Under the pieces are notes generated by a model that saw only the letters and a list, made by a program, of their open reading frames with translations, searched no databases and was not told where the DNA came from. A DNA stretch of 12,421 bases from a virus. Taxonomy: Duplodnaviria; Heunggongvirae; Uroviricota; Caudoviricetes. Below are positions 1 through 12,421 of this stretch, piece by piece (within the stretch, counting starts at the first letter, position 1; every line of letters begins with the position of its first letter). A program made the position numbers and the translations under genes. Location: IMG/VR virus record IMGVR_UViG_2925919700_000002, positions 1 to 12,421 of that record; one strand, given 5' to 3'.

Positions 1-1146
1 TTACGCCTTCTTTATATCCTCCATAATTCCAGAGTGGGACATATTTGGGACATTATCACCAAAAATGTCGTCTATTTTCCTCGAATGCTCTGTCAAATGA
101 TTAGGCGCAAGGTGAGCATACCTACGAACCATTTCTATGGACTCCCATCCGCCCATTTCCTGAAGCACTGATAATGGGACGCCTGACTGAATCAGCCAGC
201 TTGCCCAGGTGTGTCTGAGGTCATGGAAACGGAAATCTTCAATTCCTGCACGACGACAAGCTGATAGCCATGATGTCTTGCTGTCGATGCGCATCTTCCT
301 GACCGCAGGCGTTGATGTTCCATCTGCTCGCTTAGCCGCCTTGGTATGTACAAACACCCATTTGTGATGCTTGCCTATTTGATCACGCAACACTTTACAG
401 GCGGTATCGTTCAGCGCCACACCAATGGCGCGGTTTGATTTGCTCTCTTCTGGATTCACCCAGGCAACTCGTCGCTGCATGTCGATTTGTTGCCATTCCA
501 GATTTATGATGTTCGACTTTCTCAGACCAGTTGCCAGCGCAAACTTGACGACAGATTTCAGTGGTTCGGGGCACTCATCAATAAGGCGTTTTGCTTCCTC
601 CTTTTCCAGCCATCTGACTCGCTTGTTTCTGACCGCTGGTTTCTTGATGACAGGCGCTTTTTCCAGCCACTTCCAGTCGCGTTCTGCAGCACGGAGAATG
701 GCCTTTATCATGGCAAGATGCTTTGCCTTTGTCTGAGTTGATACTGGCTTTGGTTCATAAACAGGCGGTTCTTTACCTTTCCTGATGGCGGCCTGAACTT
801 TCTGTTTCCATATTTCTTTCGTCTTTCTGTTATGCATTCTGCTTACAGCAGAGTAAATCTTTGCCTCCGAGATATCTTTACCAGCTCGTTGCTGCCAGAC
901 GATCCAACCGAGAGTCATATCCCATGCCATGTATTCGTTATCGCCGTTTTTTACTCTACGACGATCTACTAAGTCACCGAAACGCTTTTCCATGAATAAT
1001 TCATAGGCTTCGCGTTCATCTGGCTCTACTTCCAGAGATACGAGTGCGATTTCATAAGCACGGCGCTCAATATCGTCTCGAACCTCTAGGCTGCTGATTC
1101 GTTCTTTGATTTCTTTAATCAGTTCTTTATTGGTAAATGTGGTCAT
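1..1146 (-). CDS. int: Phage tyrosine integrase (P22/DLP12 IntD family catalytic and core-binding domains) with a non-canonical N-terminal ~90 aa
   Basis: 381-aa ORF, stop at 1-3, ATG at 1144-1146. C-terminal region carries the tyrosine recombinase signature ([17 protein letters not shown] ... [39 protein letters not shown]). N-terminal ~90 aa are acidic and helical, unlike the MSLFRR-type arm-binding domain I recall for this family. Confidence 0.85.
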
Positions 1147-1508
1147 TATGCTCCAGCCTCCGGTGCTTTTGGCATTACTGCCCAGTGAGTGATATTGACG
1201 TTTTCAAGGTCCCCGACCTGAAATGTCCACTGCCATTCTCCGGTTTCTTTTTGTCCCCAGGTGTACCAGAGAGAACGCCAGCCAATCAGCCAGCCTTCTC
1301 CATTAGCATCAAATAACAGAACACTTTCATTTGCTGGTGGCAGTTCAGCTGACACTGGTATTATTTTGTTTTCCAGTGCCGCACATTTAGCTTCAAGCGC
1401 GTCGAATTTACGTAACAGGTACTCAGCATTTGTTTCATTCACTTTCAGATCTCGCGGTACACATTTCCCGCGAAGAAACCCTTCCATTTCGAAAACATTC
1501 ATGCGCAT
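1146..1508 (-). CDS. Hypothetical phage protein, DUF551-like C-terminus, translationally coupled to int
   Basis: 120-aa ORF. Its TAA stop overlaps the int ATG (TAATG on the minus strand). GGAG lies 8 nt upstream of the ATG at 1506-1508. C-terminal Trp-rich motif ([17 protein letters not shown] ... [12 protein letters not shown]) resembles the conserved DUF551 C-terminus. Function unknown. Confidence 0.6.
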
Positions 1509-1723
1509 TTGCGTAACTCCGATAAATCGTTAAAACGTTCCATAAACATCCCGTAGGCATGACCCGGTGCCAGTGGAATCACGTTGAACATCTCTGTTGC
1601 CGGGATGCCTTCCAGTACCGTGGCATTTGAAGAGAAGTATGGCTCCCAGCTGGAGCTGATATTTCGTTTTATCGATCGCGCACTGGCGATTGGTGTGCTG
1701 GCCTGATTTTGTGGAGAAAGTTA

Positions 1724-2107
1724 ATGCGTGATATTCAGATGGTTCTTGAACGTTGGGGAGCGTGGGCGGCTAATAATCATGAAGATGTGACCTGGTCGTC
1801 CATTGCCGCCGGTTTTAAGGGATTAATTCCTTCAAAAGTAAAATCTCGCCCGCAATGTTGTGACGATGACGCGATGATTATTTGCGGGTGCATGGCCCGT
1901 CTGAAAAAGAACAACAGCGATTTGCACGATTTATTAGTAGATTATTATGTAGTCGGTATGACATTCATGTCACTGGCAGGTAAGCATTGCTGCTCTGATG
2001 GTTATATCGGGAAAAGGTTACAGAAGGCTGAGGGCATAATTGAAGGGATGTTAATGGCATTAGATATCCGGTTAGAGATGGATATCGTTGTTAATAACTC
2101 TAATTAA
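1724..2107 (+). CDS. quuD: Late-gene antiterminator Q, phage 82 / DLP12 QuuD type
   Basis: 127 aa from ATG 1724 ([14 protein letters not shown]...), with GGAGAAAG 5 nt upstream. Cys clusters ([25 protein letters not shown]) are typical of 82-type Q. The ORF track's TTG at 1709 is a less likely start. Sits directly upstream of the late/lysis region. Confidence 0.85.
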
Positions 2108-2246
2108 TATGCCAATTGTTTACTGAAAGTTATTAAAAATGGGGCGTTGCAACGCCCCCAAAAATAAAGGGTAATATATAACAGAAGGTTTATATAGTTA
2201 GAAGCAAGGTTGTGCTCCTAAAGGAAGTGGCTTGAGGGAGCCACTT
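2108..2246 (+). promoter_or_regulatory. Presumed late promoter and Q-utilisation region (pR'/qut equivalent); exact -35/-10 not resolved
   Basis: Position immediately downstream of Q and upstream of a plus-strand terminator, as in lambda and phage 82. I could not pick a convincing sigma-70 hexamer pair by eye. Confidence 0.3.
2133..2158 (-). terminator. Rho-independent terminator on the minus strand, downstream of nmpC
   Basis: Perfect 18-bp GC-rich palindrome GGGGCGTTGCAACGCCCC (2141-2158). On the minus strand it is followed by ATTTTT; on the plus strand it is flanked by A-runs, so it is strand-specific. Confidence 0.6.
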
Positions 2247-2287
2247 ATATGTTGGGGAGGCAACGCCTCCCGCAACATATCTTTTTC
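2225..2287 (+). terminator. Tandem hairpins followed by a T-run on the plus strand; candidate late terminator (tR' equivalent)
   Basis: Hairpin 1 at 2225-2246 (AAGTGGCT / AGCCACTT). Hairpin 2 at 2247-2280 (ATATGTTGGGGAGGC / GCCTCCCGCAACATAT, one bulge). CTTTTT follows at 2281-2286. Confidence 0.5.
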
Positions 2288-2296
2288 GTAATCAGA

Positions 2297-3394
2297 TTAG
2301 AACTGGTAAACCAGACCTACAGCAACGATGTCATCAGTGCTTACACCGAGTGCTTTAGTGAAGTCATTTTTGTCAAGCAGGTTGATTTTGTAATCAACGA
2401 AAGTAGACATATTTTTGTTGAAGTAATAGGTTGCACCTACATCAACATATTTGACTAAGTCCTGATCGCCCCATACTCCAAGATCCTTACCTTTAGATTG
2501 CAGGTAAGCAACGGACGGACGCAGACCGAAATCGAACTGATATTGTGCAACAGCTTCGAAGTTTTGAGCTTTATTAGCAACGAAGTGATCAGCAAATACA
2601 GTCATATTCTGGGTTTCAGAATAGGTAGTGGCCAGGTAAATGTTGTTAGCGTCATATTTCAGACCTGCGGCCCAAACTTCTGCATTTTTACCGGAAGCAA
2701 ATACTTCAGGAAGAACTTTCCCTGCATTAACTTGAGTGTCGGTACGATCAGATTTCGCATAAGTTGCACCGATACCGAATCCTTCGTATTCATAGGTAGC
2801 AGAGAAACCGAAGCCATCACCGTTACCTTCGGTGTAGTTATCGAAATCGCTACGATCGTTTTTGCCTTGGTACTGAGCAGCAAAGTTCAGACCATCAACC
2901 AGACCAAAGAAGTCGTTGTTACGATAGGTTGCAACACCAGTGGTGCGACCAGTCATGAACACATCTGTTTGGGTCCAGGTATCGCCACCGAATTCTGGCA
3001 GAACGTCAGTCCACGCACCGATGTCGTATGCTACACCGTAGTTACGGCCGTAATCGATTGAGCCGTAGTCACCGAATTTCAGGCCTGCAAATGCAAGACG
3101 GGTTTTGTCTTTGGAGGAACCTTGAGATTCAGCGCGGTTGCCTTTGAATTCATATTCCCACTGACCGAAACCAGTCAGCTGATCGTTGATTTGGGTTTCG
3201 CCTTTGAAGCCCAGACGAACATAAGTAGTATCACCATCATCTGCATCGTTAGAGGAAAAGTAGTGCTTGGCATTAACTTTCCCGTACAGATCCAGCTTGT
3301 TACTGTCTTTATTATAAATTTCAGCTGCCTGAGCAGACATCGCCATCAGTACTGATGCAGCTACAGCAGAAATTGCCACTGTTAATTTTTTCAT
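2297..3394 (-). CDS. nmpC: Outer-membrane general porin, prophage-encoded NmpC/Lc type (OmpC/OmpF/PhoE family), intact
   Basis: 365 aa. Sec signal peptide [23 protein letters not shown] then AEIYNKD. Porin signatures throughout and a C-terminal ...VGLVYQF ending in Phe. AAGGG lies upstream of the ATG at 3392-3394. No insertion sequence interrupts it. Confidence 0.9.
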
Positions 3395-3982
3395 CGTGAG
3401 CCCTTTTTTTTGAACTATTATTAAAAAATGATGTCACTGCACGATAAATATTCATCTAATCAATGTGATTATTTCAAGATGTAAGTTTTAGTTTCTCATT
3501 TAATTTGTGAAGTAGATCTCTATTTTTATCTGAACTTTTTCTATCGAAACCTATTTATGGCTCTTATTTGAACAAAAATAAATCTATTAGCTAATTTATA
3601 TTAATGGCTGTTATTTATGGTGGTTCTATAATTCGTCTGTTTAATTTAAACCGGCTAAAAATAACACTGGAAATTATTTATTGGTTATTTGTTGAGGTTT
3701 TCTTATGTATTTGTGGTGATGTTTTGAACACTCGGTAGCATTCTCATAAATATCATTCAGTGGTTTACGTACGTAAAAAATTGGTTATGCTGTTAAGAGT
3801 GGTTACTTCGTCACACAGCTTAAACCCGCCGTCGAGCTGGTTTTTCCATTTTTTGAGTCTCGATATTAGCTGATAACTCAATACCTGAGTTATTCACTGA
3901 CTCGGAGTCAGTTACGTTTCTGCTTTTTTGCGATACGTTGTATTCCCTCAATTTACACCCGCTTTGTCTGCGAGGTGGGGTT
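3395..3982. promoter_or_regulatory. AT-rich 590-bp intergenic region: nmpC promoter/regulatory region and lysis-cassette leader
   Basis: No ORF of 60 aa or more. Degenerate direct repeats of TTATTTATGG at about 3552, 3611 and 3675, roughly 60 bp apart. Hairpin ACTGAC-TCGGA-GTCAGT at 3896-3912 upstream of the holin. Confidence 0.35.
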
Positions 3983-4198
3983 ATGAAATTCATGGATAAG
4001 TTAACAACTGGAGTCGCCTATGGCACCTCAGCAGGTAGTGCCGGTTACTGGTTTTTACAGCTGCTCGATAAAGTCACTCCCTCACAGTGGGCAGCAATAG
4101 GTGTGCTGGGTAGCCTGGTATTTGGCCTGCTGACGTACCTGACAAACCTTTATTTCAAGATTAAAGAAGATAAGCGCAAGGCTGCGAGAGGTGAATAA
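3983..4198 (+). CDS. essD: Class II pinholin, phage 21 S type, with dual-start motif
   Basis: 71 aa, [24 protein letters not shown]... Met1-Lys-Phe-Met4 gives antiholin and holin starts. Two TMDs and a charged C-terminus ([13 protein letters not shown]). GAGGTGGGG lies upstream. Stop overlaps the endolysin start (TAATG). Confidence 0.9.
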
Positions 4199-4695
4199 TG
4201 CCTCCATCATTACGAAAAGCCGTTGCTGCTGCTATTGGTGGCGGAGCAATTGCTATAGCATCAGTGTTAATCACTGGCCCAAGTGGTAACGATGGTCTGG
4301 AAGGTGTCAGCTACATACCATACAAAGATATTGTTGGTGTATGGACTGTATGTCACGGACACACCGGAAAAGACATCATGCTCGGTAAAACGTATACCAA
4401 AGCAGAATGCAAAGCACTCTTGAATAAAGACCTTGCCACTGTCGCCAGACAAATTAACCCGTATATCAAAGTCGATATACCGGAAACAACGCGCGGCGCT
4501 CTTTACTCATTCGTTTACAATGTGGGTGCTGGCAATTTTAGAACATCGACGCTTCTTCGCAAAATAAACCAGGGCGATATCAAAGGCGCATGTGATCAGC
4601 TGCGTCGCTGGACATACGCTGGCGGTAAGCAATGGAAAGGCCTGATGACTCGTCGTGAGATTGAGCGTGAAGTCTGTTTGTGGGGGCAACAGTGA
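4198..4695 (+). CDS. rrrD: SAR endolysin (signal-anchor-release lysozyme, phage 21 R type)
   Basis: 165 aa. N-terminal Gly/Ala-rich weakly hydrophobic SAR domain ([22 protein letters not shown]) followed by a lysozyme-like catalytic region. ATG overlaps the holin stop. Confidence 0.9.
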
Positions 4696-5153
4696 GCAGA
4701 GTAACCGCGATTATATCCGCTCTGATTATCTGCATCATCGTCAGCCTGTCATGGGCGGTCAATCATTACCGTGATAACGCAATCGCCTACAAAGCCCAGC
4801 GCGACAAAAATGCCAGAGAACTGAAGCTAGCGAACGCGGCAATTACTGACATGCAGATGCGTCAGCGTGATGTTGCTGCGCTCGATGCAAAATACACGAA
4901 GGAGTTAGCTGATGCGAAAGCTGAAAATGATGCTCTGCGTGATGATGTTGCCGCTGGTCGTCGTCGGTTGCACATCAAAGCAGTCTGTCAGTCAGTGCGT
5001 GAAGCCACCACGGCCTCCGGCGTGGATAATGCAGCCTCCCCCCGACTGGCAGACACCGCTGAACGGGATTATTTCACCCTCAGAGAGAGGCTGATCACTA
5101 TGCAAAAACAACTGGAAGGAACCCAGAAGTATATTAATGAGCAGTGCAGATAG
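4692..5153 (+). CDS. rzpD: Rz inner-membrane spanin (i-spanin), lambda Rz-like
   Basis: 153 aa from GTG 4692 ([29 protein letters not shown]...). N-terminal TMD plus coiled-coil periplasmic domain. GTG overlaps the endolysin TGA (GTGA). The ORF track's 4680 start is less likely. Confidence 0.85.
4912..5094 (+). CDS. rzoD: Rz1 outer-membrane lipoprotein spanin (o-spanin), embedded in the +1 frame of Rz
   Basis: 60 aa, [20 protein letters not shown]... Lipobox VVGC, then a proline-rich mature part ([15 protein letters not shown]). GGAG lies 7 nt upstream of the ATG. Lies wholly inside Rz. Confidence 0.8.
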
Positions 5154-5184
5154 AGCTGACCATATCGATGGGCAACTCATGCAA

Positions 5185-5478
5185 TTATTTTGAGCAATAC
5201 ACACGCGCTTCCAGCGGAGTATAAATGCCTAAAGTAATAAAACCGAGCAATCCATTTACGAATGTTTGCTGGGTTTCTGTTTTAACAACATTTTCTGCGC
5301 CGCCACAAATTTTGGCTGCATCGACAGTTTTCTTCTGCCCAATTCCAGAAACGAAGAAATGATGGGTGATGGTTTCCTTTGGTGCTACTGCTGTCTGTTT
5401 GTTTTGAACAGTAAACGTCTGTTGAGCACATCCTGTAATAAGCAGGGCCAGCGCAGTAGCGAGTAGCATTTTTTTCAT
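5185..5478 (-). CDS. borD: Bor lipoprotein (lambda Bor-type serum-resistance outer-membrane lipoprotein)
   Basis: 97 aa. Signal peptide with lipobox (LLITGC). Near-identical to the lambda Bor sequence as I recall it. Confidence 0.9.
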   Translation of the reverse strand: MKKMLLATALALLITGCAQQTFTVQNKQTAVAPKETITHHFFVSGIGQKKTVDAAKICGGAENVVKTETQQTFVNGLLGFITLGIYTPLEARVYCSK

Positions 5479-5768
5479 GGTGTTATTCCCGATGCTTTTT
5501 GAAGTTCGCAGAATCGTATGTGTAGAAAATTAAACAAACCCTAAACAATGAGTTGAAATTTCATATTGTTAATATTTATTAATGTATGTCAGGTGCGATG
5601 AATCGTCATTGTATTCCCGGATTAACTATGTCCACAGCCCTGACGGGGAACTTCTCTGCGGGAGTGTCCGGGAATAATTAAAAACGATGCACACAGGGTT
5701 TAGCGCGTACACGTATTGCATTATGCCAACGCCCCGGTGCTGACACGGAAGAAACCGGACGTTATGAT

Positions 5769-6179
5769 TTAGCGTGGAAAGATTTGTGTAGTGTTCTGAA
5801 TGCTCTCAGTAAATAGTAATGAATTATCAAAGGTATAGTAATATCTTTTATGTTCGTGGATATTTGTAACCCATCGGAAAACTCCTGCTTTAGCAAGATT
5901 TTCCCTGTATTGCTGAAATGTGATTTCTCTTGATTTCAACCTATCAAAGGACGTTTCTATAAGATGCGTATTTCTTGAGAATTTAACATTTACAACCTTT
6001 TTAAGTCCTTTTATTAACACAGTGTTATCGTTTTCTAACACAATGTGAATATTATCTGTGGCTAGATAGTAAATATAATGTGAGACATTGTGACGTTTTA
6101 GTTCAGAATAAAACAATTCACAGTTTAAATCTTTTCGCACTTGATCGAATATTTCTTTAAAAATGGCAACCTGAGCCAT
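5769..6179 (-). CDS. ybcV: DLP12-type prophage protein YbcV (DUF1398)
   Basis: 136 aa from ATG 6177-6179 ([11 protein letters not shown]...), with GGAAGG upstream. The open frame extends upstream to an ATG at 6221 and a TTG at 6302, so the start is ambiguous. Confidence 0.7.
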
Positions 6180-6464
6180 TGGTAAAACCTTCCATGTGAT
6201 ACGAGGGCGCGTAGTTTGCATTATCGTTTTTATCGTTTCAATCTGGTCTGACCTCTTTGTGTTTTGTTGATGATTTATGTCAAATATTAGGAATGTTTTC
6301 AATTAATAGTATTGGTTGTGTAACAAAGTGCGGTCCTGCTGGCATTCTGGAGGGAAATACAACCGACAGATGTATGTAAGGCCAACGTGCTCAAATCTTC
6401 ATACAGAAAGATTTGAAGTAATATTTTAACCGCTAGATGAAGAGCAAGCGCATGGAGCGACAAA

Positions 6465-6671
6465 ATGAATAAAGAACAATCTGCTGATGATCCCTCCGTG
6501 GATCTGATTCGTGTAAAAAATATGCTTAATAGCACCATTTCTATGAGTTACCCTGATGTTGTAATTGCATGTATAGAACATAAGGTGTCTCTGGAAGCAT
6601 TCAGGGCAATTGAGGCAGCGTTGGTGAAGCACGATAATAATATGAAGGATTATTCCCTGGTGGTTGACTGA
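6465..6671 (+). CDS. ybcW: Small DLP12-type prophage protein (YbcW-like), function unknown
   Basis: 68 aa, [22 protein letters not shown]... GGAG lies 7 nt upstream of the ATG. Divergent from ybcV. Confidence 0.6.
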
Positions 6672-6937
6672 TCACCATAACTGCTAATCATTCAAACTAC
6701 TTAACCTGTGACAGAGCCAACACGCAGTCTGTCACTGTCAGGAAAGTGGTAAAACTGCAACTCAATTACTGCAATGCCCTCGTAATTAAGTGAATTTACA
6801 ATATCGTCCTGTTCGGAGGGAAGAACGCGGGATGTTCATTCTTCATCACTTTTAATTGATGTATATGCTCTCTTTTCTGACGTTAGCCTCCGACGGCAGG
6901 CTTCAATGACCCAGGCTGAGAAATTCCCGGACCCTTT

Positions 6938-9028
6938 TTGATCAAGAGCGATGTTAATTTGTTCAATCATTTGGTTAGGAAATCCGCGGCAACGCGCGCC
7001 GAGACAGCAGCAAAACGGGCAGAGGATATTGCATCCGCCGTGGCGCTTGAGGATGCGAGCACGACGAAAAAGGGGATAGTACAGCTCAGCAGTGCGACCA
7101 ACAGCACGTCTGAAACGCTGGCGGCAACGCCAAAGGCAGTAAAAGCAGCCAATGACAATGCTGAGAAACGTCTGCAGAAAGACCAGAACGGCGCTGATAT
7201 ACCCGATAAGGGACGCTTCCTGAACAACATTAACGCGGTCAGTAAAACAGACTTTGCTGATAAGCGTGGTATGCGTTATGTGCGGGTTAACGCTCCTGCA
7301 GGTGCAACATCTGGAAAATATTACCCTGTTGTTGTTATGCGTTCTGCTGGCTCAGTAAGCGAACTGGCATCAAGGGTCATTATCACCACGGCAACGCGAA
7401 CCGCAGGCGATCCGATGAATAACTGCGAGTTTAACGGATTTGTTATGCCTGGTGGCTGGACTGACAGGGGGCGTTATGCTTATGGAATGTTCTGGCAATA
7501 TCAAAACAATGAACGAGCCATCCACTCAATAATGATGAGTAATAAGGGCGATGATTTGCGCTCTGTGTTCTATGTTGATGGCGCTGCTTTCCCTGTTTTT
7601 GCGTTTATCGAAGATGGCCTGTCAATATCCGCACCTGGTGCTGATCTCGTTGTTAATGATACGACCTATAAGTTTGGGGCAACAAATCCAGCGACTGAAT
7701 GTATCGCGGCGGACGTTATCCTTGATTTTAAGAGTGGGCGTGGTTTTTATGAGTCTCATTCGTTAATCGTTAACGATAACTTGTCGTGCAAAAAACTTTT
7801 TGCCACAGACGAAATTGTAGCGCGTGGTGGTAATCAGATTCGAATGATAGGTGGGGAGTATGGTGCATTATGGCGTAATGATGGCGCTAAAACTTACCTG
7901 CTGCTTACCAATCAAGGTGATGTTTATGGTGGCTGGAATACATTAAGACCGTTTGCTATTGATAACGCAACCGGCGAACTGGTTATTGGAACCAAACTGT
8001 CCGCAAGTCTGAACGGTAATGCATTAACAGCAACAAAGCTGCAAACGCCAAGACTGGTTTCTGGTGTTGAGTTTGATGGTTCCAAAGATATTACTTTAAC
8101 CGCCGCGCATGTGGCTGCTTTTGCCAGAAGGGCAACGGATACGTATGCCGATGCGGATGGGGGCGTTCCATGGAATGCCGAATCAGGCGCTTACAATGTC
8201 ACCCGCTCTGGCGACAGCTATATTCTGGTTAACTTCTATACCGGAGTCGGAAGTTGCCGGACCTTGCAGATGAAGGCACATTACAGAAATGGAGGTCTGT
8301 TCTACCGTTCCTCAAGAGATGGCTATGGTTTTGAGGAAGACTGGGCAGAAGTTTATACCTCGAAAAATCTTCCACCAGAAAGCTACCCAGTCGGTGCACC
8401 AATCCCGTGGCCATCAGATACCGTTCCGTCTGGTTATGCCCTGATGCAGGGGCAGACTTTTGACAAATCTGCATACCCGAAACTTGCAGCCGCTTATCCG
8501 TCAGGCGTGATCCCTGATATGCGTGGCTGGACGATTAAGGGCAAACCTGCCAGTGGTCGTGCCGTATTGTCTCAGGAACAGGACGGCATTAAATCGCACA
8601 CCCACAGCGCCAGCGCATCCAGTACGGATTTGGGGACGAAAACCACATCGTCGTTTGATTACGGCACTAAATCCACGAATAACACCGGGGCGCATACGCA
8701 CAGTGTGAGCGGTACAGCCGCAAGTGCCGGAAACCATACTCATAGTGTCACAGGCGCATCAGCAGTCAGCCAGTGGTCACAAAATGGGTCAGTACATAAG
8801 GTAGTGTCTGCGGCCAGTGTGAATACAAGTGCTGCAGGAGCGCACACTCATAGTGTCAGCGGCACAGCCGCATCTGCAGGTGCTCACGCACATACTGTCG
8901 GTATTGGTGCTCATACGCACTCTGTTGCGATTGGCTCACATGGACACACCATCACCGTTAACGCTGCTGGTAACGCGGAAAACACCGTCAAAAACATCGC
9001 ATTTAACTACATTGTGAGGCTTGCATAA
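6938..9028 (+). CDS. stf: Side tail fibre protein, 5'-truncated: distal ~680 aa only, lacking the N-terminal tail-attachment domain; start codon uncertain (possible pseudogene)
   Basis: Open frame of 696 codons from TTG 6938. Similarity to Stf begins near 6984 ([55 protein letters not shown]). Conserved C-terminal block (GAPIPWPSD ... [31 protein letters not shown] ... [18 protein letters not shown]) matches lambda Stf and StfR as recalled. No in-frame ATG with an RBS near the 5' end. Confidence 0.8.
8596..8957 (+). repeat. His-x-His repeat array within the stf 3' region
   Basis: Repeated [15 protein letters not shown] units (8688-8732 and 8838-8882) plus shorter HTHS/HAHT/HGHT units. These are coding repeats, typical of the fibre-tip domains of lambda Stf and T4 gp37-type fibres. 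Confidence 0.7.
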
Positions 9029-9603
9029 TGGCATTCAGAATGAGTGAACAACCACGGACCATAAAAATTTATAATCTGCTGTCCGGAACTAATGAATTTA
9101 TTGGTGAAGGTGATGCATATATTCCGCCTCATACAGGTCTGCCAGCAAACAGTACCGATATTGCACCGCCAGATATTCCGGCTGGTTTCGTGGCTGTTTT
9201 CAACAGTGATGAGTCATCGTGGCATCTCGTTGAAGATCATCGGGGTAAAACGGTTTATGACGTGGCTTCCGGCGACGCGTTATTTATTTCTGAACTCGGC
9301 TCATTACCGGAAAATGTCACCTGGTTATCCCCGGAAGGGGAGTTTCAGAAGTGGAACGGCACAGCCTGGGGGAAGGATACGGAAGCAGAAAAACTGTTCC
9401 GGATCCGGGAGGCGGAAGAAACAAAAAACAGCCTGATGCAGGTAGCCAGTGAGCATATAGCGCCGCTTCAGGATGCTGTGGATCTGGAGATCGCAACGGA
9501 GAAAGAAACCTTGTTGCTGGAAGCCTGGAAAAAGTATCGGGTGTTGCTGAATCGTGTTGATACATCAACTGCACCGGATATTGAATGGCCAGCCCTACCG
9601 TAG
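9028..9603 (+). CDS. tfa: Tail fibre assembly protein (Tfa)
   Basis: 191 aa. ATG overlaps the stf stop (TAATG). Conserved C-terminal Tfa block [37 protein letters not shown]. Confidence 0.85.
9455..9568 (+). repeat. Direct repeat copy A (tfa 3' conserved block)
   Basis: About 114 bp, roughly 85% identical by eye to 12226-12340, in the same orientation. Confidence 0.7.
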
Positions 9604-9679
9604 GGTAAGATATATAAATTCTATAATTAGAAGTATCTTTCCATTTAAGGCTAGGAAGGGGGGCTTGGAAAACGTAAGG

Positions 9680-9703
9680 AATCTCACACCGAGATTATTT
9701 TTA
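9680..9703. terminator. Weak hairpin between convergent tfa and recombinase genes; possible bidirectional terminator
   Basis: Stem AATCTC / GAGATT with loop ACACC at 9680-9696, followed by ATTTTT on the plus strand. Short stem, low confidence. Confidence 0.3.
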
Positions 9704-10291
9704 TATATCAGGTGTCTGATTTTTTGCTTTAGCTCTTAAAATGGTTTGCCGCGAGGTTTTGAATTCTTGGGCAATGTCACTTATATTTATACCTGACTTA
9801 ATTTGCTCTAGTACCCTCTGTATTTGTTCATCATTTAACACAGGTGGGCGACCAAATCGCTTTCCTGCGCCCCGTGCTCTTAATATCCCTGAATGAGTAC
9901 GCTCAAGTAAAAGGTCTCGCTCAAATTCAGCGACTGCTGAAATTACTTGCATCATCATTTTTCCAGGTGGACTGGTCAGGTCAACGCCCCCCAATGCTAA
10001 GCAATGCACTTTGATACCTGCTTTGGTCAGTTGTTCCACCGTTTTACTGATATCCATTGGATTACAACCGAGGCGATCCAGTTTTGTGACAATCAATGCA
10101 TCACCTCTTTTCAGTCGATCAAGCAACTGGTTAAAACCAGGACGCTCACTGGTTGCTGCTGAGCCGCTAATTTGTTCTTCAATTATTTGCTGAGATTTGA
10201 TGTTAAAACCTGCACTTTCGATTTCCCGACGTTGATTTTTGGTTGTTTGTTCCAGAGTTGATACCCGACAGTAAGCATAAATTCGAGACAT
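9701..10291 (-). CDS. Small serine recombinase (resolvase/invertase family), PinR/PinQ-like
   Basis: 196 aa. N-terminal catalytic motif [11 protein letters not shown] with the presumptive catalytic Ser. Conserved [12 protein letters not shown] and [14 protein letters not shown] blocks. C-terminal HTH ([19 protein letters not shown]). Position after stf-tfa on the opposite strand matches the Rac and Qin layout. Confidence 0.85.
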
Positions 10292-10609
10292 AGTGAGATC
10301 TTCTATACGAAATTGGTGTACATATCATAATGCATCTCAGAAAATAATTTTGATTATTTTTGTACATATTTGTATGTACACGTTCGAAAATAAACGAATG
10401 CGTATGCAACCCCGTAATTTTGGTGAGATCCAAAATCGATTTTGTGAAAAATGGCCTTAACTCGGTTTGTTTTTCGAGTTCCGGGCGGACTCAAGGAAGA
10501 AGAATAGTGTTGCGTGTTATTTTAACCAGATTTCAAGTTGTTTGGTCGTGGAAAAGTGGAGCAAAATGTTGTTAAAGTGGAAAAATGATAAAAAAGTAAG
10601 TTTATTATA
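10292..10609. promoter_or_regulatory. 318-bp AT-rich spacer upstream of the recombinase, with palindromes
   Basis: Inverted repeat TGTACATA-tttg-TATGTACA (10361-10380), with a TGTACATA half-site copy at 10317-10324. Perfect 14-bp palindrome CAAAATCGATTTTG (10431-10444). Direct repeats of AAGTGGAAAA around 10549-10585. No convincing ORF. Confidence 0.4.
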
Positions 10610-10843
10610 TTACATTTTACCATTTAAATTTTTGTTGTCTTTAAGAACTGATATCGCTGTTTGTAATAATTCTTTGTTATCCAGCCATGACTTTTTCTTT
10701 ATGTTTCCTTCAATGTAATCAAGCAATGTTCTGGTATTGATAGGTCTTCCCTGTTTTGCTACTTCCATTACAGCATCCCCTAGGATAATTCTTACTTCAG
10801 GAAGCTGCGCAGGGAACCACTTTAGGGTGTCTTTTGATTTCAT
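10610..10843 (-). CDS. Small prophage protein, YnaE/YdfK-like by position and size
   Basis: 77 aa from ATG 10841-10843 (MKSKDTLKWFPAQ...), with AAGGAA 7 nt upstream. The ORF track's start at 10876 has no RBS. Sits upstream of the pin-like gene on the same strand, as ynaE/ydfK do in Rac and Qin. Identity is from recollection, not alignment. Confidence 0.5.
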   Translation of the reverse strand: MKSKDTLKWFPAQLPEVRIILGDAVMEVAKQGRPINTRTLLDYIEGNIKKKSWLDNKELLQTAISVLKDNKNLNGKM

Positions 10844-11343
10844 GAAGATATTCCTTAAAATATTATTGATTTTCATTGCGATATTGTATGTCTGATTCAG
10901 TATATGTTGACTTATACATCGGTTTTGTCTGGGTTATTGGATATGCCAATCCCTAATTTTATTAGAGCATGACTAAAAATGCTGAATATGATAAGGAGCG
11001 AAGTGATTATCAGTATGCTGTTCATATAGCCTCGAATTAGTAATGTGTTATATATGATATAGTTGACAATTTTTATCCTGGGGGTTCTTAAAGTTCGTAG
11101 ATAAACATTGTCGTTTCAGGTATACAGGAATGCTAACAGGTGGCAGCAAAAATCAGGCGGTTTATGGCGCAAGCTGAAGTGGCAACTGCAAACTATCTTA
11201 TGCAGAGACTCTACACGGATTGGGTTTAAAAGTATACATAGATAACAGTTTTTATCTGAAGAAGAAAAATATCAAGGTGATATAGCCTATATGCCTATGA
11301 TGCGGAGGAATGAATGTGATGGGAGTGATGTATCTGAATAGTT

Positions 11344-11383
11344 GAAAAACCGCAGACACGCCTTAAGCAAGAACGTGCTGCGG
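11344..11383 (-). terminator. Rho-independent terminator downstream of the ybcY-like gene
   Basis: On the minus strand: stem CCGCAGCACG ... CGTGTCTGCGG (plus 11350-11383, one bulge) followed directly by TTTTT (plus 11345-11349). Confidence 0.6.
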
Positions 11384-11390
11384 TTGGATG

Positions 11391-12059
11391 CTATTTTTTC
11401 CCTGAAGCGGAAAACATTACTACAGTACCTTGAACCTTGGTTTTAACATTCTCGAAATGCTCTGAGAGTATATGTGTTAAGCCTTCTTCGGAATCTTTTG
11501 TGTTTGAAAAGATGCCTTTCTGATTGTAAATGCGCATCAGTTTTTGACCGAAGCTATTGTGCACAACTCCATCGCCAAGAATTGTGGCTCCGTATAGAGT
11601 TCCATCGTCAGTTAAGGCCTGCGCCGCATTGCGTATTACACAGCTTTTTGTAGATATATTTCCAGGCAGGCAGTGAAGAAGGTAAAACATGGAAATGGAA
11701 TCAAATTGACCATGTAACGCCGCGGGATAAGGTTCAAAAACATCATGGCTAATTTTATGTTTAATTTTTGATTCCCCAGCCCTTGTAGATGCCGCGTTCA
11801 GGCTAGCTTCGTTCAAATCCATTAAAGATATCAGACTACTCTCAGGTACGTGAGTAAGGTAAAACCCAGTTCCAACACCAATATCCAGATGGTTGTTACC
11901 TAAATGTTCCAGAAAGTGTGGAAGAAGGTGTTCCTTTGTAGGACATCCCCATGCAAGCCGATTTGATACTCCCAAAACCCACCAGTCATAAAGCTTTAGG
12001 GTAAGTGGTGTGTAAATTTTAGCCCCATCATCTGTGTTTTTTTTCATTAATTTCACCAT
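11391..12059 (-). CDS. ybcY: Class I SAM-dependent methyltransferase (YbcY-like), apparently intact
   Basis: 222 aa. Motif I DIGVGTGFY. The start may instead be the second Met (ATG ending at 12047), which has GGTG upstream; the first ATG at 12059 has no RBS. Confidence 0.7.
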   Translation of the reverse strand: MVKLMKKNTDDGAKIYTPLTLKLYDWWVLGVSNRLAWGCPTKEHLLPHFLEHLGNNHLDIGVGTGFYLTHVPESSLISLMDLNEASLNAASTRAGESKIKHKISHDVFEPYPAALHGQFDSISMFYLLHCLPGNISTKSCVIRNAAQALTDDGTLYGATILGDGVVHNSFGQKLMRIYNQKGIFSNTKDSEEGLTHILSEHFENVKTKVQGTVVMFSASGKK

Positions 12060-12115
12060 GTTATAGTTTTATTTGTGAATTAAATCAATTATGGCGATGA
12101 ATTACAAGGGGTTAA

Positions 12116-12421
12116 ATGCTGCCGCAGCATAGCGATATTGAAATAGCCTGGTATGCTTCGATACAACAGGAGCCGAATGGCTGGAAGACCGTCACCACAC
12201 AGTTCTACATCCAGGAATTCAGTGAGTATATTGCGCCACTGCAGGATGCTGTAGATCTGGAAATCGCAACGGAGGAAGAAAGATCGTTGCTGGAGGCATG
12301 GAATAAATATCGGGTATTGTTGAATCGAGTTGATACATCAGTAGCTCTGGGTATGAAGCTGTTTGTAACTCATGTTACAGTAACAGTCATTACTATCTCG
12401 AAGGTGCAAAATGTATATTGA
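12116..12421 (+). CDS. tfaX: Tail fibre assembly protein remnant (TfaX-like), carrying only the conserved Tfa C-terminal block
   Basis: 101 aa. AAGGGG lies upstream of the ATG at 12116. Contains [37 protein letters not shown], then an unrelated tail. Stop at 12419-12421. Confidence 0.6.
12226..12340 (+). repeat. Direct repeat copy B (tfa 3' conserved block)
   Basis: Partner of 9455-9568, same orientation. Confidence 0.7.

Follow-up and report, generated by a model that had tools for sequence, protein, structure and literature searches.

A serine recombinase gene that adjoins tail-fiber genes in a phage genome raises the question of which DNA segment its product would invert. This question was posed by a preliminary description of IMG/VR record IMGVR_UViG_2925919700_000002, a stretch of 12,421 nucleotides referred to here as the window, in which such a gene, pin, was noticed beside stf/tfa while no invertible segment was seen. 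We conclude that pin descends from the resolvase gene (tnpR) of a Tn3-family transposon whose boundaries can still be located, that this element has lost its transposase gene tnpA and the crossover subsite I of its res site, and that an arginine of the active site has been replaced by cysteine, while subsites II and III are retained and the reading frame is under purifying selection. In our judgment, pin is probably a fossil resolvase gene that lacks tnpA, site I, the catalytic arginine and any substrate in cis, and that was kept because its product acts as a DNA-binding regulator of itself; the "missing" invertible segment never existed.

The pin gene and the search for an invertible segment

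The serine recombinase announced beside stf/tfa is present, and the product of its open reading frame (ORF) matches the Pfam families Resolvase (1e-37; residues 4-144) and HTH_7 (1.8e-11; residues 147-190). The range originally assigned to it, 9701-10876, contains this ORF but also covers a neighboring ydfK/ynaE-like gene (10610-10843/10876, minus strand), which lies outside the recombinase element. The absence of an inverted stf/tfa copy was borne out, as inverted pairs in the window reach no more than 21-34 nucleotides at 71-86% identity, as expected by chance. A single repeat is of substantial size, the direct pair 9436-9581/12209-12354, derived from the 3' end of tfa and from tfaX; its members are 82% identical and are the two tfa-like blocks that had been noticed in direct orientation. 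A dyad scan for Hin/Gin/Pin-type 26-bp crossover sites, which recovered both e14 pix sites as a positive control, found none in the window, in agreement with the preliminary description, none in Rac and two of background level in Qin. With neither an invertible segment nor a partner site in cis, the recombinase is indeed an orphan at this locus, as had been considered.

The premise of a fiber invertase of the Mu/P1/e14 type, from which the search for such a segment had started, failed. Pin is 85% identical to PinR and PinQ of E. coli K-12 and 80% identical to P0013, the TnpR that a compact Tn3-family transposon of E. coli plasmids encodes, as opposed to 35% for PinE and about 35% for Cin and other phage invertases. 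Moreover, remnants of transposon ends and of a res site surround the gene, and pin is convergent with stf/tfa, unlike gin, cin and pinE in their placement.

The window Pin shows the features of the PinR/PinQ group, i.e. about 85% identity, the synteny tfa><pin<ydfK and a cysteine at residue 76 (Cys76). It differs from PinR at 30 residues, with a synonymous divergence (dS) of 0.24, and the two alleles share 17 derived residues, Cys76 among them. Judged by its sequence, the window pin is a new, distinct and older allele of the known PinR/PinQ family. In the spacer upstream of pin and in ydfK, the window, Rac and Qin agree at about 99%. The older allele forms a sharply bounded patch inside otherwise recent sequence: the pin coding sequence together with the terminal repeat described below as IR-R' (9658-10300) has diverged by about 10% from Rac/Qin (dS 0.24), and the identity of the flanking res remnant, spacer and ydfK amounts to about 99%. 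Throughout the clade the recognition helix T(S/T)RQTI(L/M)R is kept (TSRQTILR in the window), so that the DNA specificity is probably unchanged.

Remnants of a Tn3-family element around pin

A set of 80 homologue loci with 59-85% protein identity was gathered across Proteobacteria, where the gene occurs in mixed contexts on plasmids, on islands and in phages. Beside the recombinase, about 12 of the 80 loci encode a divergent Tn3-family transposase of about 1000 residues (the neighbor in locus L014 reaches 1209.6 bits on the NCBIfam model transpos_Tn3, NF033527), and the transposase-bearing loci possess 38-bp terminal inverted repeats (IRs) of the form GGGG...TAAG. P0013, which is encountered very frequently on E. 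coli plasmids and is the closest arginine-bearing relative, serves as TnpR in a 3815-bp transposon with the order IR-tnpA-res-tnpR-IR (locus L088, 1823-5637), and its neighbor carries the domains DUF4158 and DDE_Tnp_Tn3. The window could be aligned with this transposon from subsite II through the -10 box, subsite III, a near-identical 5' untranslated region (UTR) and the whole gene up to the terminal repeat IR-R. The literature on the res half-site strings and on compact Tn3-family elements (Tn5403, ISEc63) gave no usable match.

For the definition of res, the 67 non-E. coli loci (59-77% identical) with usable upstream sequence were employed. The approximately 115 bp before the ATG share one architecture in these 67 loci, namely site I, 14 bp, site II, TATAAT and site III. 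Subsite I of the clade is a 26-bp dyad, TGTCCGAAACCGAnCGGTTTCGGACA (12+2+12, with inner AAACC..GGTTT), subsite II is a 32-bp dyad, TGTACGAAAG-N-TTTCGGACA, and subsite III is TTCGTACATCCnTTTCGGACGGAA. The res sites of Tn3 and gamma-delta have a three-subsite layout and a half-site similar to that of the Pin clade. Position weight matrices (PWMs) of the subsites were built from the same 67 loci, and the shuffled window served as background. The features recognized in this way are collected in Table 1.

Table 1. Features of the pin locus, in order of their position in the window.
Feature	Position	Strand	Remarks
AGGAA, left copy of putative 5-bp target-site duplication	9653-9657		abuts terminal repeat
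IR-R', degenerate 38-bp Tn3-family terminal repeat	9656-9693	+	25/38 to IR consensus of related intact transposons
pin, tnpR-derived small serine recombinase, PinR/PinQ allele	9701-10291	-	196 aa; Pfam Resolvase and HTH_7
res subsite III remnant, ATATGTACACCAATTTCGTATAGA	10302-10325	-	22.4 bits; true-site minimum 18.9; shuffled maximum 13.4; Rac/Qin 17.3
TATGAT, likely -10 box of pin promoter	10323-10328	-	between and overlapping subsites II/III; place of TATAAT in 67 loci
res subsite II remnant, TGTACAAAAATAATCAAAATTATTTTCTGAGA	10335-10366	-	22.2 bits; true-site minimum 22.2; shuffled maximum 10.0; Rac/Qin 13.7
Inverted repeat TGTACATA-N4-TATGTACA	10361-10380		outer subsite II left half and TGTACA in 14-bp I-II spacer
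res subsite I (crossover site) position, decayed to CATACGCATTCGTTTATTTTCGAACG	10381-10406	-	0.8 bits; in register 14 bp upstream of site II
14-bp palindrome CAAAATCGATTTTG	10431-10444		in the 49 bp between IR-L' and subsite I; former tnpA and leader
IR-L', degenerate 38-bp Tn3-family terminal repeat	10456-10493	-	25/38 to IR consensus
AGGAA, right copy of putative 5-bp target-site duplication	10494-10498		abuts terminal repeat

The two best matches to the IR consensus in the window, IR-R' and IR-L', flank pin and are inverted and outward-facing. IR-R' has its outer GGGG end toward tfa, starts about 8 bp past the pin stop codon, includes an exact GCTTGGAAAACG and can be aligned base for base to the IR-R of L088, itself located 9 bp downstream of tnpR; this match is present in all lambdoid-type loci. 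IR-L' points with its outer end toward ydfK, its inner end being GTTAAG, and counterparts matching at 23-24 of 38 positions were found at the same relative place in Rac, Qin, the phages Tritos and 2H10, L008-L011, L037 and L092. As a pair, the two repeats keep their relative placement in Rac, Qin, Tritos, 2H10 and the majority of the remaining lambdoid-type loci. When the window was shuffled, at least 24/38 was reached anywhere in the 12.4 kb in 3% of trials, and in the other fetched loci matches at this level or above are essentially limited to genuine IRs. AGGAA abuts both repeats in the window, Rac, Qin, Tritos, 2H10 and L008/L011/L012/L037, and a 5-bp target duplication is expected of a Tn3-family insertion. 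The fossil element delimited in this way extends over about 9658-10493 (836 bp). No transposase ORF was found in the window, and the distance from IR-L' to subsite I, with which the res block begins, amounts to just 49 bp, indicating that tnpA was deleted. The empty site, reconstructed as tfa-AGGAA-ydfK, was found in 0 of 5426 E. coli genomes, nor was it found in the phage collection or in IMG/VR; together with the identical flanks in all copies, its absence points to a single old insertion.

Upstream of pin, subsites II and III are still recognizable as true sites (Table 1), and the window subsite III is near-identical to site III of the intact L088. By analogy with the TATAAT of the 67 loci, TATGAT is the likely -10 box of the pin promoter; a simple promoter scan did not call it. 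In contrast, subsite I scores 0.8 bits, in Rac and Qin as well, compared with a true-site minimum of 8.3, a true-site median of 33.9 and a mean shuffled maximum of 2.9, and its right half-site alone is recognizable (7.2 bits). An intermediate allele of 6.5 bits in phage 2H10, L012 and L092 speaks for a decay of subsite I in place. A site I split by a 20-bp insertion, as a pairwise MAFFT alignment would have it, was rejected in favor of this in-register decay on the basis of a 5-way alignment and of the 2H10/L012/L092 allele. Beyond the pin locus, PWM scans detected no other site I, II or III in the window, and half-sites of at least 8 bits are not in excess (11 versus 8.9 expected).

Two palindromic sequences in the spacer had been proposed as candidate crossover sites, and both are where they had been reported, TGTACATA-tttg-TATGTACA at 10361-10380 and CAAAATCGATTTTG at 10431-10444, but neither can be upheld in that role. 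The former, the TGTACA inverted repeat, is composed of the left half of subsite II and the I-II spacer, one of its arms being the left half-site TGTACAAAAAT (12.2 bits). Rac and Qin have TGCACA in one arm, so that the symmetry of this repeat is not conserved. The 14-bp palindrome is located outside res in the former tnpA leader, and its symmetry is statistically ordinary. The window contains four perfect 14-bp palindromes (0.86 expected from shuffles) and two inverted repeats of the 8-N4-8 type (0.23 expected); since both features have further examples in the window, they carry little weight alone. The possibility that the 14-bp palindrome is a relocated site I was rejected as well, because its half-sites are separated by about 4 bp and not 8, score at most 5.1 bits each, and such palindromes are not rare here.

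None of the lambdoid copies has lost the 14-bp palindrome, and 2H10/L012/L092 show one double change that preserves the dyad. In the 2H10-type copies (L006, L012, L092) it reads CAAAAAATCGATTTTTG, with one change per arm by which the dyad is preserved and extended; although a single event, this may reflect selection for symmetry in what was the tnpA leader.

A different state is found in Erwinia phage LS-2018a (L007, 7884-8606), where a homologue of the arginine type, 59% identical, lies between the terminase and portal genes. Its res is complete (22.3, 14.5 and 24.4 bits for subsites I, II and III) and uses the variant half-site TGTACTAAA. To judge from the sequence, this phage has a resolvase module that seems functional and lies apart from the tail fibers.

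Active site, selection and the role of Pin

Pin possesses Y7, R9, S11, E39 and R73, the equivalents of Y6, R8, S10, D36 (glutamate clade-wide) and R68 of Tn3 resolvase. Cys76 (TGT, 10064-10066), however, aligns to Arg71 of gamma-delta/Tn3 resolvase, and by the Tn3 list (Y6, R8, S10, D36, R68, R71) the active site is incomplete because the R71 equivalent is replaced. The recombinase had been called intact, which is correct for the catalytic serine (S11) and the helix-turn-helix and incorrect for this position. In the alignment, the Arg71 position is occupied by cysteine in 8 of 8 lambdoid-type sequences and by arginine in all 63 others, including PinE, and arginine was found in each of the 59 clade members outside the lambdoid type; likewise, clusters of a large protein database have cysteine at 84-99% identity and arginine at 83% or less. 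In Tn3 resolvase, R71A and R71K exchanges made recombination undetectable and cleavage about 1000-fold slower while binding to site I was kept (Olorunniji and Stark, 2009; PMC2794168). Further clade-invariant residues are altered in the lambdoid group only (R35Q, E61K, T113M). Nevertheless, a comparison of pin with pinR gave a ratio of nonsynonymous to synonymous divergence (dN/dS) of 0.33 at a dS of 0.24, which is below neutrality at p = 8e-5. As both alleles share Cys76, this value indicates that the ORF has been maintained by selection since Arg76 was lost.

One lambdoid-sited pin copy (L092, 3926-4560; E. coli GCA_910593615.1) is identical to L088 tnpR at every aligned position examined between the right half of subsite II and approximately codon 185. 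In this copy, Arg76 is restored and site I is not; from its sequence, the patch looks like a gene conversion of the fossil by a live transposon.

The reading that we regard as probable can be put as follows. In an ancestral lambdoid phage, a miniature Tn3-family element inserted a single time into the b-region, at a point between tfa and ydfK, and produced a 5-bp duplication; it was then inherited by Rac, Qin, the DLP12/Rac mosaic prophage of the window and live phages such as Tritos and 2H10. Its tnpA was deleted, subsites II and III survived around the -10 box, and the crossover subsite I was destroyed. Accordingly, pin has stf/tfa as neighbors because the transposon landed in the phage b-region. 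Pin would neither invert fiber genes nor resolve anything at its own locus, and its strand-exchange activity is probably very low. Since purifying selection still acts on the ORF, Pin has most likely survived as a protein that binds DNA sequence-specifically. Like Tn3-type resolvases, it would repress the promoter of its own gene from the residual subsites II and III, and any action beyond this would be in trans. The earlier suggestion that the enzyme might resolve rather than invert points in the right direction insofar as the gene descends from a resolvase.

The same is true for the suggestion of a distant target, given the published trans effect of the 85%-identical PinQ on the P segment of e14. 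According to Kirigo et al. (2025; PMC12529663), the inverted P segment yields a chimeric StfE2 that blocks T2 adsorption, overproduced PinQ raised the inverted P segment from about 30% to 88%, PinE gave 49%, and deletion of pinQ lowered inversion and T2 survival. These PinQ data weigh against the reading of a disabled resolvase, because Cys76 would not abolish activity if PinQ were the catalyst, and several other points do so as well. R71 mutants of Tn3 resolvase were described as "not inert" (PMC2794168), and weak catalysis together with selection could suffice. Binding of Pin to subsites II/III and autoregulation would be expected by analogy to Tn3/gamma-delta, and the subsites II and III of Rac/Qin score lower (13.7 and 17.3 bits, respectively). 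Finally, the transposition event, for which an empty site was not found, rests on IRs with 25/38 matches and on a 5-bp repeat.

Whether the PinR/PinQ/window group as a whole is a disabled resolvase kept as a DNA-binding regulator, which occupies sites and does not exchange strands, we put forward only tentatively. In one candidate mode, the group would bias or gate another recombinase, so that PinQ would skew the PinE-dependent P-segment orientation to 88% while a pinE mutant would stay locked. In another, the targets of repression would be res and the tnpA/tnpR promoters in the related live Tn3-family transposon of E. coli plasmids, with which, judged by L092, the fossil still exchanges sequence. 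Both data sets would be accommodated if PinQ modulated the PinE reaction without catalysis of its own. In an unreviewed preprint, a transcriptional-repression phenotype is ascribed to PinR.

Among the alternatives, the one that survives best, although we consider it unlikely, is that Pin is an active invertase in trans, as published for PinQ, which on phage attack flips an e14-type P segment at pix sites elsewhere in the chromosome. In the published work (PMC12529663), T2 survivors carry the P-segment inversion, PinQ overproduction gives 88% inverted, and the PinQ effect is abolished by deletion of stfP, stfE or e14. The window Pin is 85% identical to PinQ with an identical recognition helix, and pix has an inner AAACC..GGTTT similar to the inner portion of site I in the Pin clade. 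However, the same work describes the P segment as locked in a pinE mutant, indicating that chromosomal pinQ and pinR do not invert it without PinE, and its accessible part reports neither an in vitro reaction nor a trial of PinQ in a pinE-deleted strain. Also, 88% inverted is not the equilibrium of about 50% expected of an invertase, Pin has a cysteine in place of the catalytic Arg71 equivalent, and pix half-sites score between -2.3 and 4.3 bits on the clade half-site PWM, compared with a true-site median of 13.9, with a half-site spacing that is 2 bp shorter than in clade site I.

Much less probable is a pseudogene-in-waiting, devoid of function and decaying slowly as a mere passenger of the prophage. 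Such a fate would be in line with the loss of tnpA, site I and the catalytic arginine, with the changes in three other clade-invariant residues and with a dN/dS that, at 0.33, is relaxed when compared to typical housekeeping genes. Yet dN/dS is below 1 (p = 8e-5) over a synonymous divergence of 0.24, both old alleles, the window type and the PinR type, are full-length ORFs, the protein clusters have hundreds to thousands of members, the gene is kept in viable phages, and phenotypes of pinQ/pinR knockout and overexpression have been published.

We consider it very improbable that Pin is a working resolvase that uses one of the palindromes in the upstream spacer and resolves or deletes DNA between two such sites, for instance in prophage or phage multimers. 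Its resolvase ancestry, the partly retained res, the about 99% conservation of the spacer in the window, Rac and Qin and the one dyad-preserving double substitution in the 14-bp palindrome would agree with such a function. Against it stand the 0.8 bits of site I, the spacing of about 4 bp instead of 8 and the scores of at most 5.1 bits of the palindrome half-sites, the lack of a second copy of such a site in the window, and the loss of the catalytic arginine. In addition, when E. coli genomes of the database were searched with e14, Rac, Qin and CPS-53 sequences, inversions were found only in e14, as stated by the authors of PMC12529663.

Last, a relic of a fiber inversion system of the Mu/P1/e14 type (Gin/Cin/Pin family), with segment and crossover sites deleted, is hardly credible: Pin adjoins stf/tfa, belongs to the small serine recombinases of about 190 residues and has Gin as its best PDB sequence match (1.8e-27), marginally ahead of gamma-delta resolvase (6e-23), but such a relic is already contradicted by the identities of 35% to PinE versus 80% to a Tn3-family TnpR, by the res, terminal IR and target-site duplication remnants around pin, by the convergent orientation with tfa and the absence of hix/gix/pix-like sites in the scans, by the single fiber set of live phages with this module, and by the position of the LS-2018a homologue between terminase and portal genes.

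Prophage context and comparison with known systems

Comparison with E. coli K-12 revealed that the window is an E. coli cryptic lambdoid prophage, composed as a mosaic of a DLP12 backbone and a Rac-type block. Positions 1-6982 and 11350-12315 match K-12 DLP12 at 97.8-99.5% and carry intD, quuD, nmpC, essD/rrrD/rzpD, borD, ybcV and ybcW, then ybcY and tfaX, and positions 6981-11387 match the right end of Rac at 95-98% with stfR', tfaR, pinR and ynaE. The nohD-tfaD region of DLP12 is swapped for this Rac-type stf'-tfa-pin-ydfK block (95-98%). In the window nmpC (2297-3394) is intact, whereas nmpC of K-12 is interrupted by IS5.

DNA similar to the pin locus is present in 5262 of 5426 complete E. 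coli genomes, and RefSeq labels the locus as "recombinase family protein" adjoining "cold shock protein YdfK." The module stf-tfa><pin<ydfK, followed by int/att, also occurs in viable lambdoid phages, e.g. Tritos and 2H10, and live phages of this type have a single fiber set. A module shared with viable phages indicates that pin sits in the dispensable b-region and that its closeness to fiber genes is positional, not functional.

The ydfK/ynaE-like gene upstream of the element (10610-10876, minus strand) has a longest ORF of 88 codons, and K-12 YnaE/YdfK begin at an internal methionine (77 residues; window position 10843). A Pfam scan of its product gave no match; the precomputed annotation of one homologue is PF27475 (YnaE). 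Within the 3' end of tfa, an Rfam IS009 match (212.6 bits) is located at 9371-9569 on the plus strand, and the conserved tfa 3' block with this match recurs as the direct repeat at 12209-12354 in tfaX. The C-terminal part of stf (8687-8932) contains tandem and dispersed GAHTHS-type repeats (63 nucleotides at 8687/8837 and 27 nucleotides at 8879/8906), consistent with Pfam Phage_fiber repeats.

Among known systems, PinR of Rac and PinQ of Qin resemble the window Pin in length, Cys76, recognition helix and the synteny stf-tfa><pin<ydfK/ynaE. They differ in that the window pin lies in a DLP12-sited mosaic prophage and that its subsites II/III and 5' UTR are less decayed (22 versus 14-17 bits). 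The L088 TnpR/res shares with the window an alignable site II, -10 box, site III, 5' UTR, gene and IR-R, the 38-bp repeats and the 5-bp target duplication; in contrast, the window element lacks tnpA, its site I is destroyed, its IRs are degenerate (25/38), its Arg71 equivalent is cysteine, and it is fixed in phage genomes and not mobile. Hin, Gin, Cin and PinE are likewise small serine recombinases with a C-terminal helix-turn-helix that are encoded beside tail-fiber genes, and the intact site I of the Pin clade (a 26-bp 12+2+12 dyad with AAACC..GGTTT) resembles hix/pix. These invertases use hix/gix/cix/pix sites and a Fis-dependent recombinational enhancer, which lies in the 5' portion of the invertase gene. 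The window differs from them in identity (35%), in gene orientation, in the lack of inverted crossover sites and of an invertible segment, and in the recognition helix (STLYK/R versus RQTILR in the window). Tn3-derived miniature elements are short segments without transposase that are bounded by terminal Tn3-family IRs. When compared to such non-autonomous elements, the window element keeps a resolvase ORF under selection as well as accessory res subsites, and it appears immobile, with every copy occupying the same insertion site.

The annotation of pinR and pinQ as invertases extends to thousands of E. coli genomes, and both were recently promoted as the first "recombinase-activated" anti-phage system. 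If these proteins descend from a Tn3-family resolvase, lack their own crossover site and have cysteine at the catalytic arginine position, the question to be asked would shift from their inversion target to binding and modulation. A recombinase beside fiber genes with nothing to flip is then explained without any special mechanism, by the landing and decay of a transposon in the b-region, and illustrates cleanly how a phage can keep a gene of a mobile element that has itself died. What is less ordinary is that the whole PinR/PinQ group looks stripped of the crossover site and of the catalytic arginine, yet is kept by selection, which bears on the function currently claimed for these proteins.

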